IMG/VR virus record: IMGVR_UViG_3300021963_006915 | Span: 1 to 64,000 of that record | Source: a virus | Lineage: Duplodnaviria > Caudoviricetes | DNA length: 64,000 nucleotides | Strand: one strand, 5' to 3' | Shown: positions 5,901 to 10,594 of the stretch, piece by piece | Numbering within the stretch: position 1 is the first letter of the stretch | Layout of the letters: each line of letters begins with the position of its first letter | The notes under the pieces: model-generated | What the model saw: the letters and a program-made list of their open reading frames with translations, nothing else | What the model was told of the DNA's origin: nothing | The model's database searches: none | Made by a program: the position numbers and the translations under genes

Positions 5901-5935
5901 AAGCCGGTGGAGTTTTTATACCCCACCGGCTTTCT
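5901..5935 (+). terminator. Intrinsic terminator-like hairpin after the SSB gene
   Basis: AAGCCGGTGG...CCACCGGCTT 10-bp stem followed by TTTCT. Confidence 0.7.
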
Positions 5936-5948
5936 AGTTATATACGTT

Positions 5949-7079
5949 ATGGCAAAGAAAACAACAGAAAAAGATGATCTGCTAGAAAGATTGGCAGATG
6001 AACTCAACAAATCCAATAAAGAAGGTGGTAAAGTTGCGTTCTTCTTGGATGAACAAGAAGATCCATCAACAATTAGTGATTGGGTAAGCACTGGTTCATC
6101 AATGCTTGATTTAGCGATTAGTAATCGTCCTCACGGCGGTTTGCCAGTGGGACGTATCGTTGAATTAACAGGCCTTGAAGGAACTGGAAAAAGTTTGGTC
6201 TGTGCGCACATTGTTGCAGACACTCAACGAAAGGGTGGTAAAGCACTCTTCATTGACACAGAAAACTCTGAATCCAGAGAATTCTGGAAGAGTTTGGGAG
6301 TTGACTTGGCTAAAAGCAAGTTGATGTATTCTCAAGCTGAGACTGTAGAAGATATCTTCGACAGAATTGAAAAAGCAATTACGTTTATCCGTAAGGATTA
6401 TCCAGATTTGCTATTGACAATCATTGTTGATTCTGTCGCAGCTGCTTCTACAAAAGCAGAACTAGAAAGTGATCATGGTAAGGATGGTTATGCTACTGGT
6501 AAGTCAATTATTATTAGCAAAGCAATGCGTAAGATTACCAACATGATTGGTCGTCAAAAGGTATTGTTGATCTTCACTAACCAACTACGTCAGAATCTAA
6601 ATGCTATGGCGTTTGGTGACAAGTATGTAGTAAGTGGTGGTAAGGCTCTAGCTTATCATTGCAGTGTTCGTGTTCGTTTGAACAATACAGGCAAACTAAA
6701 GAAGGGTGAAGTTGTCATTGGTAACGAGTGTAAAGCCGTTGTGATTAAGAATCGTATGGGTCCACCACAACGTCAGGCTGCATTTGATATCTATTATGAC
6801 AGCGGAATTGCCGACTTTAGTAGTTGGATTAAAGTTATGAAGGATGCTAATCTTGTAAAACAAGGTGGTGCATATTACACGTATCAAAAATCTGATGGTA
6901 CTGAATGGAGATTCCAATCAAAGGATTTCATTTCAACATTACAATCAGATCCAAATCTAAAGGAAGAAATTTACTTGAAGATTTGTGATGCATGTATCAT
7001 GAAGTACAAAGATCCAAACAGCCAAATCGTTGAAGATGCACAAGTATCTACAGACGAAGGCGATGCTGGCGAAGAATAA
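5949..7079 (+). CDS. recA: RecA/UvsX recombinase
   Basis: Walker A 'GLEGTGKS', 'IIVDSVAA', 'NQLR', 'SGGKALAYH', 'KNRMGPP'; likely ATG at 5949. Confidence 0.95.
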   Translation: MAKKTTEKDDLLERLADELNKSNKEGGKVAFFLDEQEDPSTISDWVSTGSSMLDLAISNRPHGGLPVGRIVELTGLEGTGKSLVCAHIVADTQRKGGKALFIDTENSESREFWKSLGVDLAKSKLMYSQAETVEDIFDRIEKAITFIRKDYPDLLLTIIVDSVAAASTKAELESDHGKDGYATGKSIIISKAMRKITNMIGRQKVLLIFTNQLRQNLNAMAFGDKYVVSGGKALAYHCSVRVRLNNTGKLKKGEVVIGNECKAVVIKNRMGPPQRQAAFDIYYDSGIADFSSWIKVMKDANLVKQGGAYYTYQKSDGTEWRFQSKDFISTLQSDPNLKEEIYLKICDACIMKYKDPNSQIVEDAQVSTDEGDAGEE

Positions 7080-7095
7080 AACACATTGATAGGAT

Positions 7096-7147
7096 GTTTT
7101 TCCGCGTTGCCTACTACTTATTAGTATGGATAACAACGCGGAAAAAC
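7096..7147 (+). promoter_or_regulatory. RNA hairpin sequestering the endonuclease start codon, with a late-type promoter motif in the loop
   Basis: GTTTTTCCGCGTTG (7096-7109) pairs perfectly with CAACGCGGAAAAAC (7134-7147). An inner TACTA/TAGTA stem reaches ATG 7126; TACTTATT lies at 7115-7122. Confidence 0.75.
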
Positions 7148-8058
7148 TTATTTTTGAAGATCAATCTGAACGATTATATCAAATCTTTATAAAAGATGAA
7201 TCGATATGTGGATTTGCTTCTTTATTTAAACTGAATAAAATTGGTAGCAAAACTGGATTAAAAATAAAAAAATATTTATATGATAAATATGGTAAAACTT
7301 GCTTGAAAAAAATAACTGCTATCAGAACGTCTAAAGCTGCTCATCAAAAAAGAGACAAAGATAGTTATTTTATTTCCTTAGAAAGAAGACAAAAAATGTC
7401 GGCCGGTATTAAAAAATATTATAAAAATAATCAGTCCGCTAAATCTAGATGTAGGGATTTAATGATTAAACATTGTTTACCAAAGTGTCAAACGGCGGAA
7501 AGTAAAATAAAACGAGTAAAAAGTAGAGACTGGTATAAACCCAGTGAAGACACTAAACAAAAAATGTCTGAATCTCAACTTGGAAAGCCATTAACAGAAG
7601 AACATAAATTAAAATTAAGAAAACCAAAGAAAACCAAACGATCTAATTTTAGACATACTACTGAAACAATACACAAATTATCGTTAATTACTAAAAATCA
7701 GTGGAAAAGTGGAATTCATAAACCAATTTTTAAATCTAAAGGTCAACAAGAAGTAATTAAATTGTTAAAAGAACAAGGTTATTCAATTCAAGATGAGTAT
7801 TTTGTTGATGGAAAACCATATGATGTGTTTGTAAAAGAAAAAAATTTGTTAATAGAATTTAATGGTACTTATTGGCACAGAGATCCTCGGTTTTTTAAAT
7901 CAAACAACGACGTTACAAAAATATGGGAAAAAGACAAAAATAAAATGTTGATTGCTGAATCAAATGGGTATATAATAAAAGTTATATGGCAACACGATTG
8001 GGAACAATGTAAAGACAAAAATATATACATTAAAAATTTATTAAATGAGCAACTTTGA
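7126..8058 (+). mobile_element. Free-standing homing endonuclease: NUMOD3-like repeats plus C-terminal Vsr/EDxHD-like nuclease
   Basis: Repeats 'SEDTKQKMSES', 'LTEEHKLKL', 'HTTETIHKLS'; catalytic 'PYDVF...IEFNGTYWH..P'; more AT-rich than its neighbours. Confidence 0.8.
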
Positions 8059-8173
8059 CAACAGAGAAATGAAGAAGTTATTTTCTTTATTTCAAAATAT
8101 AGAAAGCGATTCCGTCACCGGAGGACTTAAAAAATCACTTAATAGTGATGTCCTTTTGGTTGACGGATTGTAG
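8045..8173 (+). CDS. N-terminal 42-aa fragment of a split 5'-3' exonuclease (not in the ORF track)
   Basis: MSNFDNREMKKLFSLFQNIESDSVTGGLKKSLNSDVLLVDGL then TAG. It ends in the 'LLVDG' first catalytic strand, and the stop overlaps the GTG at 8173. Confidence 0.75.
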   Translation: MSNFDNREMKKLFSLFQNIESDSVTGGLKKSLNSDVLLVDGL

Positions 8174-9117
8174 TGAACACCTTCATTCGTTCGTTTATGG
8201 CTGTGCCATCGATGAATGATGATGGAATGCATACCGGAGGAATTGCTGGCTTCCTCAAGAGTATTGGTTATGCTATTAAATTAATTAATCCAACTAGAGT
8301 AATTGTCGTATTTGATGGATCAGGTGGTTCACAAAAACGTCGTAAGATTTATCCCGATTACAAAAAGGGACGTAAGACAAAAATCAAGTTCAACAGAACA
8401 TATGAAGAATTGAGTTCATCTGAACTTGAACAAAAAAATCTTCAAATTGAATTGATGCGTTTGGTTAGTTATCTTGAAGTATTACCAGTAACTGTAATGG
8501 CTATTGATAATATTGAAGCTGACGATACAATTGCATATTTGGCTGAAGATACGTTCAAGGACAGCAACGTAACTATCATGTCTACAGACAAAGACTTTCT
8601 ACAATTGGCAAGCGAAAGAGTAAAGATCTGGAGTCCTGTCAAGAAAAAAATCTTTGGGTGCAAAGAAATTGTAGATGAATATGGTATTACATGCAATAAC
8701 TTTATCTTCTACAGAGTCTTGGAGGGAGACGTTAGTGATAACATTCCTGGCATTGATGGCGTTGGAATAAAGCGAGTTCTTCAGGCATATCCATTTTTGG
8801 CTGATGACAAACAAGTAACATTGCAAGAGATCTATAATTACTCTGAAAATTACAAGGGTAAGTATAAAATTTACGAACGTGTACTAGATAACAAACTCCT
8901 AATTGAACGTAATTATGAATTGATGCAATTAAAAGCTACAAGCATTCAATCATTTACGCAGTTAAGAATTGAGGAGATAATTAAAAAACAAGTTCCTAAG
9001 ATTGATAAGATGACATTCAGCAGACTTATCACTGAGGATAAAATGTGGAATAACCTACCAAACTATATGGTATGGTTGAATGAAACTTGGGGCAAACTCA
9101 ATAGTTTCGTATTGTAA
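8173..9117 (+). CDS. 5'-3' exonuclease / flap endonuclease (T4 RNase H, PolI N-terminal-like), main fragment
   Basis: 'VVFDG', 'RRKIYPDYK', 'EADD', 'STDKDFLQL', 'GDVSDNIPGIDGVG'; lacks the first Asp, which lies in 8045-8173. Confidence 0.9.
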   Translation: MNTFIRSFMAVPSMNDDGMHTGGIAGFLKSIGYAIKLINPTRVIVVFDGSGGSQKRRKIYPDYKKGRKTKIKFNRTYEELSSSELEQKNLQIELMRLVSYLEVLPVTVMAIDNIEADDTIAYLAEDTFKDSNVTIMSTDKDFLQLASERVKIWSPVKKKIFGCKEIVDEYGITCNNFIFYRVLEGDVSDNIPGIDGVGIKRVLQAYPFLADDKQVTLQEIYNYSENYKGKYKIYERVLDNKLLIERNYELMQLKATSIQSFTQLRIEEIIKKQVPKIDKMTFSRLITEDKMWNNLPNYMVWLNETWGKLNSFVL

Positions 9118-9205
9118 GATCGATAGTTTATAAAATAAGTTGGATTCTACACACATCGGTGTAGACTAAGGGTGTCGTATTAACAAAACATAGAAAGAAT
9201 ATATC

Positions 9206-10594
9206 ATGAGCGAAAAGCATATTATTGACAACTTGAAGAAGTTTGGAAGTGAGTTTCAAGTTAAGTGTATCTCAGGTCTTGTATCCGATAGACCATTCAT
9301 TGAACGTATTAGTGACATTGTAGAAGCAGACTTCTTTGAAAGTGATGCTCACCAATGGATTGTCAAGGAAAGTATTAAGTACTTCAACGAATATCGTGAT
9401 CTACCAACACTCAATGTGTTTAAGGTCAAATTGGAAGTAGTTACAAACGAGGTACTTAAAAAGAGTATCGTAGATAATCTAAAGTCAATTTATCAAAAGA
9501 TGAATGACGGCGATCTAAAGTTCATCAAAGAAGAGTTCCTTGAATTCTGTATCAATCAGAAGCTAAAGAATGCCATCATGGAAAGCGTTGACTATTTGAA
9601 GATTGGTCAGTATGAAAAGATCAAGACCAAGTTTGATGAAGCACTAAAAGCTGGTATGGAACGTAATATTGGTCATGACTATGGCGAAGACGTTGAGAAA
9701 CGTATGACCGTAATGGCTCGTAGCTCTATCAATACCAAGTGGGAAGTTATTGATGGTTTGATGGATGGTGGTCTTGGACCTGGCGAACTTGGAATTATTA
9801 CAGCTTGTGCTGGTAGTGGTAAGAGCTGGGTACTATGTAAACTAGGTGCCGAGGCTATGAAACAAGGTAAAAATGTAGTTCACTTTACTCTAGAGTTGAA
9901 TGAAAACTATGTTGGTCTACGATATGATGCTTGCTTCACTGGAATTGATTTCCAAAATATTCGTAACAACATCTCAACAGTTCGTGAAAAGATTGCACAA
10001 GTGCCTGGTAAATTAATCATCAAGTACTTTCCAATCAAGACCGTATCAGCTCACAGCTTGAAAGCTCATTGTGAACGATTGGCCATGTTGGGTACCAAGG
10101 TGGATATGATTATTGTTGATTACGCAGATATTCTTCGTCCAATTAATAGTGATCGTAATAGTAACAGCTATCAAGAAGCTGGTGGTATTTATGAAGAGCT
10201 ACGTGGTGTAGCTGGTGAATTGCAAGTTCCTATTTGGAGTGCTTCACAAAGTAATCGTGCTGCTATGGATGAAGATATTATTCAGGCAAATAACATTTCT
10301 GATTCATATCGTAAGATTATGACCGCTGACTTCGTTATGTCACTAAGCCGTAAGGTTAACGATAAAGTTAGTAATACTGCACGATTCCATATCATTAAGA
10401 ATCGATTCGGACCAGATGGTTTAACCTTCCCAAGTAAGATGAACGCTGGATGTGGTCAGATTGAAATATTCAGCGAATCTTCAAGAGAAGGATTGGCACT
10501 TCAAAATGAAATGATGAATGGTGAGAACCAAGTCAAGAAATTATTGAAGAATAAGTGGAACGCTCATAGCAGTTCTGAGGATGGAGACGAATAA
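9206..10594 (+). CDS. Replicative DNA helicase (DnaB / T4 gp41-like)
   Basis: Walker A 'AGSGKS', 'FTLEL', 'IIVDYAD', 'SASQSNR', 'KNRFG'. Confidence 0.92.
   Translation: MSEKHIIDNLKKFGSEFQVKCISGLVSDRPFIERISDIVEADFFESDAHQWIVKESIKYFNEYRDLPTLNVFKVKLEVVTNEVLKKSIVDNLKSIYQKMNDGDLKFIKEEFLEFCINQKLKNAIMESVDYLKIGQYEKIKTKFDEALKAGMERNIGHDYGEDVEKRMTVMARSSINTKWEVIDGLMDGGLGPGELGIITACAGSGKSWVLCKLGAEAMKQGKNVVHFTLELNENYVGLRYDACFTGIDFQNIRNNISTVREKIAQVPGKLIIKYFPIKTVSAHSLKAHCERLAMLGTKVDMIIVDYADILRPINSDRNSNSYQEAGGIYEELRGVAGELQVPIWSASQSNRAAMDEDIIQANNISDSYRKIMTADFVMSLSRKVNDKVSNTARFHIIKNRFGPDGLTFPSKMNAGCGQIEIFSESSREGLALQNEMMNGENQVKKLLKNKWNAHSSSEDGDE

Follow-up and report, generated by a model that had tools for sequence, protein, structure and literature searches.

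A stop-containing five-nucleotide gap in the catalytic motif of a phage 5'-3' exonuclease gene, its homing-endonuclease cassette and a possible ribosomal bypass

How can a phage keep a replication gene in use when its reading frame is broken inside a metal-binding motif? The question is raised by the window analysed here, a stretch of 64,000 nucleotides (nt; positions 1 to 64,000 of virus record IMGVR_UViG_3300021963_006915), in which the gene for a 5'-3' exonuclease is split between codons 42 and 43 by five letters, TAGTG (TTG-TAGTG-AAC, 8168-8178). The surrounding positions, 8159-8190, read GTT GAC GGA TTG TAG TG AAC ACC TTC ATT CGT. Sequence comparison indicates that 7080-8175 is a single mobile homing-endonuclease cassette, made up of the endonuclease, a foreign 42-codon start of the exonuclease gene (the N-exon) and the gap. 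The feature also appears, with strong comparative support, to be of the endonuclease-plus-bypass kind. We give an even chance to the complete explanation, in which the cassette arrived with a gap that ribosomes would bypass and the gene would be kept in use. An original prediction, made from the letters of the window, had described the insert as a minimal self-immunity device of the neighbouring endonuclease; as a whole that reading was largely right, if incomplete.

Three open reading frames (ORFs) make up the locus: a 310-amino-acid (aa) endonuclease (7126-8058), a 42-aa ORF (8045-8173) that ends Val-Asp-Gly-Leu-stop, and a 314-aa ORF (8173-9117) that begins with GTG at 8173 in the +2 frame, the G being common to GTG and TAG. 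The features of the locus, several of them defined against the intact homologous locus L001, are the following.

5907-7079, plus strand: uvsX (RecA-like recombinase), left flank of the cassette; Pfam RecA, E 4e-52; the alignment to L001 stops at its TAA, 7079.
7080-8175, plus strand: mobile cassette of 1,096 nt, in place of the first 42 exonuclease codons (125 nt); blastn against L001.
7096-7147, plus strand: hairpin around the endonuclease start codon (7126); RNA fold.
7126-8058, plus strand: homing endonuclease of 310 aa, NUMOD3 plus a C-terminal Vsr/EDxHD-like nuclease domain; Pfam, PHROG, AlphaFold2 (AF2) and Foldseek.
8045-8173, plus strand: cassette-borne N-exon, 42 codons followed by TAG, with a 14-nt overlap with the endonuclease ORF; ORF list.
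8111-8167, plus strand: 5' stem-loop, with its 5' arm at 8111-8126, an inner hairpin at 8134-8149 and its 3' arm at 8150-8167, reaching the Gly41 codon; fold and covariation.
8168-8170, plus strand: codon 42, TTG (Leu), last sense codon of the N-exon and proposed take-off codon; position common to 85/85 distinct gapped alleles.
8171-8175, plus strand: 5-nt coding gap TAGTG, in which TAG (8171-8173) overlaps GTG (8173-8175), the proposed landing and/or restart codon.
8176-9117, plus strand: rest of the 5'-3' exonuclease, from codon 43 (AAC, Asn) to TAA; PF02739; 100% protein identity to L001.

The 314-aa part matches PF02739 with E 1.2e-28 and 100.3 bits (cut-off 34.3), over profile positions 10-164 only (Pfam), whereas in L001 the match covers positions 2-164 and begins at residue 36. 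This difference indicates that the first strand and the catalytic Asp are encoded by the 42-aa ORF. Indeed, the first acidic metal-binding motif, a hydrophobic strand followed by Asp-Gly, is present there and aligns with L001 residues 36-43, in agreement with the prediction that the first catalytic Asp sits on a separate ORF. PF01367 (the C-terminal helix-hairpin-helix, SAM-fold domain) scored 30.2 bits on the 314-aa part, below its cut-off of 40.

Is the insert real? A contig from an independent run, X3 (record 13), covers 7773-8232 and spans the gap with 0 differences; two X1 contigs overlap the gap without differences, but with less than 31 nt on one side. The same junction recurs in 20 TAGTG loci among 80 that were fetched. 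With an identical junction in many independent assemblies and a bridging contig of another run (contig-level evidence from four runs), a sequencing or assembly artefact has next to no chance of being the explanation, and the insert can be taken as real. L001 to L005, whose UvsX, C-part and helicase proteins are 99-100% identical to the window's, read GAT GGA TTA AAT ACT with no insert. Cultured relatives with the same gene order, Microcystis phage Mel-JY01 and Flavobacterium Immutovirus phages, have intact genes, and blastn of 6900-9300 against deposited phages gave no match.

The close relatives define the limits of the cassette. Between the window and L001, blastn identity is 98.6% up to the uvsX stop at 7079 and 99.4% from 8176, with no alignment between. 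The 1,096 nt of 7080-8175 stand where L001, whose exonuclease ATG overlaps the uvsX TAA, has 125 nt, the first 42 codons of a 355-codon gene; the window's N-exon is 50% identical to the L001 segment replaced. After the gap there are two synonymous differences from L001, at 8178 and 8181, and the next difference is at 8385, as expected from a conversion tract ending near the gap. Run X3 also holds an intact allele, which departs upstream of 8182, so that gapped and intact alleles occur together in one run, a co-occurrence required for homing between co-infecting phages. These clean breakpoints make the insert part of a single cassette and tie it to endonuclease mobility, as had been proposed. 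We suggest that gene conversion introduced the cassette into a T4-like freshwater phage, at a site between uvsX and the gene for the 5'-3' (flap/RNase H-type) exonuclease. The cassette would have brought a Vsr/I-Bth0305I-type endonuclease, its own version of exonuclease codons 1-42, and TAGTG, the last set exactly between codons 42 and 43 of the Val-Asp-Gly-Leu/Asn metal-binding motif.

The locus is the replication module of a T4-like phage; its neighbours in the window include genes for a gp32-like protein, UvsX/RecA, a DnaB-like helicase and NrdA, and the guanine-plus-cytosine content is 32%. The uvsX-exonuclease junction seems to be a hotspot for insertions. At this junction L293 carries a Mom-family protein (6514-7218; PF25680, E 2e-40) and L235 two unrelated ORFs of 215 and 455 aa (961-2968). 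In L242 the UvsX ORF itself (764-2803, 679 aa) contains a large internal insertion that is intein-like by eye.

How general is the gap, and does it travel with the endonuclease? The 80 viral contigs were fetched by similarity to the C-part, a sample unbiased with respect to the gap; 59 proved uninterrupted and 21 gapped at the same codon (20 TAGTG, 1 TAGTTA). A full endonuclease is present in 15/21 gapped and 0/59 intact loci of this sample, and 10 of 13 examined loci with an endonuclease homologue are gapped. The full collection, to which pattern scans added many further 6-nt alleles and more 5-nt ones, comprises 254 loci with 146 distinct junction sequences (61 intact, 85 gapped), a ratio of 85:61 that is not a frequency, as the scans enrich gapped alleles. 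In 85/85 distinct gapped alleles the gap follows the Asp-Gly-Leu/Thr codons, opens with TAG or TGA and is 5, 6, 7 or 11 nt long. Where one minimal device had been predicted, we find a family of gaps of 5-11 nt with, apparently, at least two endonuclease types. Its forms are listed here as take-off codon, gap and codon at which the frame resumes.

TTG or CTG, gap TAG TG (5 nt), resuming at AAC or AAT: the window and L178.
ACT, gap TAG CT (5 nt), resuming at AAT: L183.
ACC, gap TGA CA (5 nt), resuming at AAC: L187.
TTG, gap TAG TTA (6 nt), resuming at AAC: L035.
CTT, gap TGA CTC or TGA CTA (6 nt), resuming at AAC or AAT: L186 and L190.
CTC, gap TAG CGTC (7 nt), resuming at AAC or AAT: L180 and L181.
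CTA, gap TAG AAAA (7 nt), resuming at AAC: L184.
CTT, gap TGA AGAAGCTG (11 nt), resuming at AAT: L189.

A group of 16 loci (L347-type) that matched the 6-nt TAG pattern was rejected as a chance match in another gene. Among the distinct alleles, the region upstream of the exonuclease gene holds the following.

Full Vsr-like endonuclease: 23/85 gapped, 2/61 intact.
Endonuclease remnant: 8/85 gapped, 1/61 intact.
Another insert: 15/85 gapped (10 of them the L358-type ORF clade), 3/61 intact.
Nothing: 33/85 gapped, 55/61 intact.
Too little sequence: 6/85 gapped, 0/61 intact.

The predicted co-occurrence of gap and endonuclease thus holds clearly in the unbiased sample but has exceptions in both directions: the 33 gapped alleles with nothing upstream, and L182, L185 and L191, in which the endonuclease is present and the exonuclease uninterrupted, showing that the gap is not the sole possible state. 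The endonuclease-free gapped alleles keep a cassette-type N-exon, 88-98% identical to the window's, and other alleles retain remnants. On these grounds such gaps look like cases of endonuclease loss and not of independence, the gap being left behind by the usual cycle of invasion, decay and loss. L182 (3935-4000) combines the endonuclease and an uninterrupted gene (Asp-Gly-Met-Asn) with part of the basal helix typical of gapped alleles, and may be an allele that lost its gap.

The endonuclease itself had been predicted to be of the Vsr/EDxHD type, and its modelled structure agrees. NUMOD3 scores 21.7 bits in the window's protein (cut-off 20.4) and matches 8/13 family members (Pfam); MTES_1575, a PD-(D/E)xK model, reaches 30.5 bits, below its cut-off of 38.2; and PHROG 559 and 3339 match under the label homing endonuclease. 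An AF2 model from 13 homologues (predicted local distance difference test score, pLDDT, 82) has as its best Foldseek match 3r3p_B, the catalytic domain of I-Bth0305I (E 5.1e-4, template-modelling score 0.73 by target), followed by Vsr (1cw0, E 2.6e-3; 1vsr, E 4.7e-3). PDB sequence searches with the protein or its profile returned nothing significant, with 3r3p at E 0.32. D233, E244, H251 and D253, which may be the acidic and His catalytic residues expected of the family, are invariant in the 13 homologues. Every homologue found, down to about 30% identity, occupies the interval between the uvsX and exonuclease genes, and the phages concerned have UvsX only 35-58% identical, which points to an old association.

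Directly after the uvsX stop, a 52-nt hairpin (7096-7147) encloses the endonuclease ATG. The RNA fold of 7085-7160 has -25.5 kcal/mol (z -5.5; 0/200 shuffles as stable), and an Rfam search of 6900-8400 gave only two sub-threshold microRNA-like matches, both on this hairpin. It resembles the way in which endonuclease genes of T4 are sequestered from translation, and its role may be to limit endonuclease translation. In the CTT TAG CTT clade a different ORF occupies the endonuclease position (L358, 1847-2482; L364, 3779-4288), with NUMOD3 repeats and an HNH-like motif by eye; Pfam detects NUMOD3 only. In this clade the gap seems to be served by a second type of endonuclease.

Why would such a cassette carry a gap at all? 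The endonuclease would cut the uninterrupted allele at or near the conserved motif, the insert would break this target, and cassette carriers would be immune. That the gap protects against its own endonuclease is suggested by their linkage, by the fact that the gap falls in the most conserved codons, by the conversion tract ending there and by two precedents, MobA and I-Bth0305I. With MobA, nicking is blocked by the gap rather than by point differences (10.1101/2022.08.31.505936). For I-Bth0305I, few single substitutions reduce cleavage (PMC3239194), which would explain the need for an insertion.

How, then, might ribosomes deal with the gap? The codons around it suggest that one tRNA could serve on both sides. 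All 57 distinct 6-nt alleles keep the frame, and none of them offers a start codon in the stretch from the stop to the conserved Asn-x-Phe-Ile-Arg; such a start codon is also missing from the TAGCT alleles (3 distinct) and from ACC TGA CA. In 54/57 6-nt alleles the flanking codons are same-box Leu pairs (CTN/CTN in 51, TTG/TTA in 3). Leu codons elsewhere in these genes are TTA or TTG in 63% and CTN in 37% of cases, CTA/CTG to TTA/TTG being a single silent change, and the take-off codon is CTT in 43/57 6-nt alleles against 12% CTT elsewhere. Same-box pairs are as required for the re-pairing of one peptidyl-tRNA; selection for Leu alone would not yield them. The ACC or ACG TGA CA alleles would land on ACA. 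The nine variants found without a stop-specific pattern have TAG in 5, TGA in 4 and TAA in 0 (no pattern search was made for TAA-type gaps), and the exonuclease gene's own stop is TAA in 114/132 cases; avoidance of TAA in the gaps and its frequency at the gene end fit selection against efficient termination. Frameshifting by -1 or +2 was rejected, with candidate re-pairing triplets that mismatch the take-off codon and no slippery run.

An RNA structure ends at the take-off site. The 8111-8167 stem-loop has -26.3 kcal/mol (z -5.1). A complement reaching codon 41 extends over at least 8/9 nt in 72/83 gapped against 12/61 intact alleles, and over 9/9 in 35 against 0; in the 61 intact alleles the mean complement, 7.1 (4.2 Watson-Crick), equals the shuffled expectation. 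The basal helix NCCRTCN/NGAYGGN covaries among 41 distinct, thinned gapped sequences, with 99% of 287 cells paired and 46 double changes against 13.1 in shuffles (0/500 shuffles as high), and this signal is lost once the partner is shifted by one to three columns. In the Gly and Asp codons, silent third bases vary together with 5'-arm bases whose change alters an amino acid, and the inner hairpin shows a compensatory pair between the window and L035. The 35 intact sequences gave no consensus structure, and promoter- and terminator-like sites were not above shuffled expectation.

The idea that a hairpin as such is specific to gapped alleles was rejected, with an equally strong one upstream in intact alleles of the window's clade; only the register is specific. 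The intact-allele hairpin of L001 (3936-3990; -31.1 kcal/mol, z -6.3) lies in the N-terminal coding region, covaries, and pairs an AAGGAGG-like with a CCTCCTT-like stretch. It recurs at the equivalent place in L002, L012, L019, L022, L025, L027, L029, L036 and others. With codon 42 in the P site, the intact-type hairpin could be complete, while the gapped type would still have about 12 pairs to form from mRNA that is inside the ribosome. Such pairs would fit the model in which pairing of the exiting mRNA is proposed as the forward driver of sliding in gene 60 (10.1101/2024.12.09.627546). The tetraloop of the window begins 28 nt before the take-off codon, and the corresponding distance for T4 is 26 nt (10.1101/2024.12.09.627546).

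In the bypass that we propose, a ribosome whose peptidyl-tRNA(Leu) sits on UUG, with UAG, a poorly terminating stop, in the A site, would release the codon. The mRNA would then slide 5 nt forward, aided by the long 5' hairpin zipping up as its 3' arm exits the ribosome. The tRNA would re-pair on GUG at two of three positions, and decoding would restart at AAC. The product would be a normal 355-residue enzyme; terminating ribosomes would release the 42-aa peptide, and GUG may allow some reinitiation.

A simpler possibility is that the insert merely cripples a dispensable gene, with the phage tolerating the loss or using a host 5' nuclease and the 42-aa ORF functionless. T4 rnh is not known to be essential, and the window's own invasion looks recent, with flanks about 99% identical to L001 and little time for decay there. 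Against this, an open frame of at least 290 codons follows the gap in 76/76 distinct gapped alleles with enough sequence (the other 9 are too short to judge), in lineages with proteins no more than 36-79% identical to those of the window, including some in which the endonuclease is decayed or absent. The N-exon, too, bears the mark of purifying selection: among 16 distinct 42-codon N-exons of TAGTG and TAGTTA alleles, the ratio of nonsynonymous to synonymous divergence (dN/dS) is about 0.1-0.2 at a dS of about 1 (window against L178, dS 1.20 and dN 0.19; L035 against L127, dS 0.67 and dN 0.09), and the last ten residues, Asn-Ser-Asp-Val-Leu-Leu-Val-Asp-Gly-Leu, are invariant. Gap position, stop and adjoining structure are likewise kept over deep divergence. 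We consider crippling improbable: the open C-part frames and the selection on the N-exon make a dead gene unlikely, and the interrupted gene appears to stay in use, both parts being under selection and, as the original prediction had it, otherwise intact. If so, the stop might be read through by a suppressor tRNA or by near-cognate decoding, the gap adding residues. The 6-nt alleles are in frame for this, and TGA-C and TAG-C are weak termination contexts. Read-through is no general answer, however, because the window's 5-nt gap and the 7- and 11-nt gaps at the same site shift the frame; it also leaves the same-box flanking codons unexplained, and the 64-kb window, to which the scan was confined, contains no tRNA gene. 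It is, in our estimate, very unlikely.

A more serious rival for the window allele keeps the same cassette and the same immunity but makes two chains, with termination at UAG, reinitiation at the overlapping GUG, and a 42-aa peptide that would join the 314-aa chain non-covalently. Split enzymes adjoining homing endonucleases do function, as in T4 gp39/gp60 and Aeh1 NrdA (10.1101/2022.08.31.505936). The TAG/GTG overlap is kept in 19/19 distinct TAGTG alleles, among them L178 with an endonuclease of just 58% identity, and no other ending of a 5-nt TAG gap with a Leu take-off codon was found. GTG also overlaps the stop in the L315 type (ACG TGA CA), TTG overlaps TGA in L189, and purifying selection on the N-exon fits two chains equally. 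What this account does not reach is the rest of the family: the 57 6-nt alleles, the 3 TAGCT alleles and ACC TGA CA have no ATG, GTG or TTG before Asn-x-Phe-Ile-Arg. TAATG, a single mutation away and better suited to coupling, does not occur among the alleles found, TAA being avoided, and the same-box codon pairs and the hairpin register would have no role. A free peptide of 19-42 aa would moreover need to contribute one of the core strands of the nuclease domain, a central one in folds of this kind; some N-exons have only 19 aa, short for a stable separate subunit, which we count in favour of bypass. Two chains are thus a real but doubtful possibility.

The bypass reading has its own difficulties. 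The counts come from related sequences, with pattern scans enriching the gapped alleles, and the RNA-library contigs (X15, X16) that touch the region do not cross the gap. In the window, the proposed landing codon, GUG, differs from UUG in its first base and, as a start codon fused to a stop, gives a classic termination-reinitiation layout. The Leu-type 5-nt TAG gaps found all form GTG, which fits restart as well as bypass, and a metagenome scan for 5-nt TAG gaps not ending in G found, in exonuclease context, only the Thr-type TAGCT. The matched codons could be a duplicated native codon 42; the second codon is non-Leu in 3/57 6-nt alleles (CGA, GTA, TTC), and the 7-nt allele L184 has no codon match. 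A rule under which the bases that follow TAG in 5-nt gaps would copy the final two of the take-off codon (TG-TAG-TG, CT-TAG-CT) was rejected, being broken by L340 and L345 (ACG TAG CT). A strong hairpin is present in intact alleles of the window's clade as well, its 3' arm ending 13 nt earlier. The basal helix can form only once the ribosome has moved on, and its part in the 5-nt slide is therefore a model.

Taken together, ribosomal bypass is in our view the best single explanation for the family as a whole, while for the allele of the window the case is about evenly balanced. The +5 hop of the original prediction thus gains comparative support from the same-box codons and from the register and covariation of the hairpin, with two-chain reinitiation standing as a serious rival at this allele. 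The broader proposition is that natural programmed bypasses of 5-11 nt, driven by refolding of a conserved 5' hairpin, would be widespread in aquatic T4-like phages and would have evolved as endonuclease self-immunity inserts in the catalytic motif of a flap exonuclease; we see this as a coin-toss on present comparisons.

No description of this locus was found in the literature searched on stop-hops, on bypassing with homing endonucleases and on fractured exonuclease or uvsX genes, a search that left subscription journals and supplements mostly outside. Programmed bypassing in bacteria and phages so far rests on a single system, T4 gene 60 and its homologues. If true, a natural case of translational bypassing would be a rare find, and this one would be a second, simpler and much more diverse system after gene 60. 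Dozens of natural variants differ in gap length, stop, codon pairs and hairpin, with intact alleles as built-in controls, so that simple reporters could serve to test what governs take-off, the forward slide and landing. The family would also show a general route by which a free-standing endonuclease invades the most conserved codons of a gene with neither intron nor intein. Such genes are annotated as broken, and gene callers and pseudogene filters would need the pattern.

The closest known system is the T4 gene 60/mobA cassette, reportedly described by Bonocora and colleagues in 2011. As set out by Manning and Atkins, that element pairs its endonuclease with a substitute for the N-terminal segment and with a gap that is bypassed in translation and keeps the element from cutting itself (10.1101/2022.08.31.505936). 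In both systems a mobile element of about 1.1 kb carries an endonuclease and replaces the N-terminal segment of the downstream gene part, the gap opens with UAG or UGA right after the take-off codon, and the element ends at or just past the landing codon. A gap rather than point differences protects from the element's own nuclease in T4 and probably does so here. In both, the endonuclease is often lost while the gap stays (here 33 alleles without it and 8 with remnants, of 85), different endonuclease families can serve one gap, and the limits are set by near-identical genomes with and without the element (here the window and L001). The two also differ. The target is a 5'-3' exonuclease and not topoisomerase II; the element replaces the 5' end of its gene instead of splitting it into ORF1 and ORF2; the gap has 5-11 nt and not 50; and the endonuclease is Vsr/EDxHD-like (in one clade HNH-like, as judged by eye) and shows no similarity to MobA, an HNH enzyme. 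A take-off stem-loop 3' of the codon is absent here, and the 5' hairpin covaries strongly, whereas the 5' stem-loop of gene 60 is described as not conserved between clades (10.1101/2022.08.31.505936). At the present locus, moreover, bypass is a proposal from sequence comparison. The locus is therefore an analogue of the gene 60/mobA cassette and not a member, the two having no sequence similarity.

Synthetic 'stop-hops' in E. coli, reportedly introduced by Weiss and co-workers in 1987, resemble the 6-nt alleles. In them matched codons flank a stop, so that 9 nt yield one amino acid, which is the layout of CTN TAG/TGA CTN and TTG TAG TTA (PMC5009743; 10.1101/2024.12.09.627546). Those were engineered, low-level and without stimulators (PMC5009743; 10.1101/2024.12.09.627546). 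The allele of the window would be a +5 version with a match at two of three positions. A 2016 review by Atkins and colleagues states that no natural in-frame stop-hop was known and that shorter counterparts had long been expected (PMC5009743).

Genes in pieces offer a further parallel. The Aeh1 nrdA/mobE case is said to go back to Friedrich and colleagues in 2007. 'Fractured genes' with Vsr-like endonucleases and split inteins were described by Dassa et al. in 2009 (PMC2677866). In these cases, as here, a homing-endonuclease event has broken a DNA-metabolism gene of a phage at a conserved catalytic site, with function retained or, at the present locus, apparently so, and the fractured genes share the Vsr-related endonuclease family (PMC2677866). 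In contrast to them, the endonuclease here lies upstream of both parts instead of separating them, no intein is present, the parts showed no added C- or N-terminal tails, and in most relatives the second part has no start codon of its own.

I-Bth0305I, the EDxHD prototype of Taylor et al. in 2011, shares the catalytic-domain fold, a NUMOD-type N-terminal region and a phage DNA-repair gene neighbourhood; it sits in a group I intron in recA (PMC3239194), whereas the endonuclease of the window is free-standing with no intron. The two are only 22-24% identical over about 100 residues.

The mitochondrial 'byp' elements of Magnusiomyces capitatus are reportedly inserts of 27-55 nt. They differ in being mobile inserts of a yeast mitochondrion, with an unused codon and not a stop in the A site and with no link to an endonuclease (PMC5009743). 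Like the gaps described here, they are short inserts proposed or known to be bypassed, and they tolerate landing with two of three positions paired (PMC5009743), as the +5 hop from UUG to GUG would require.

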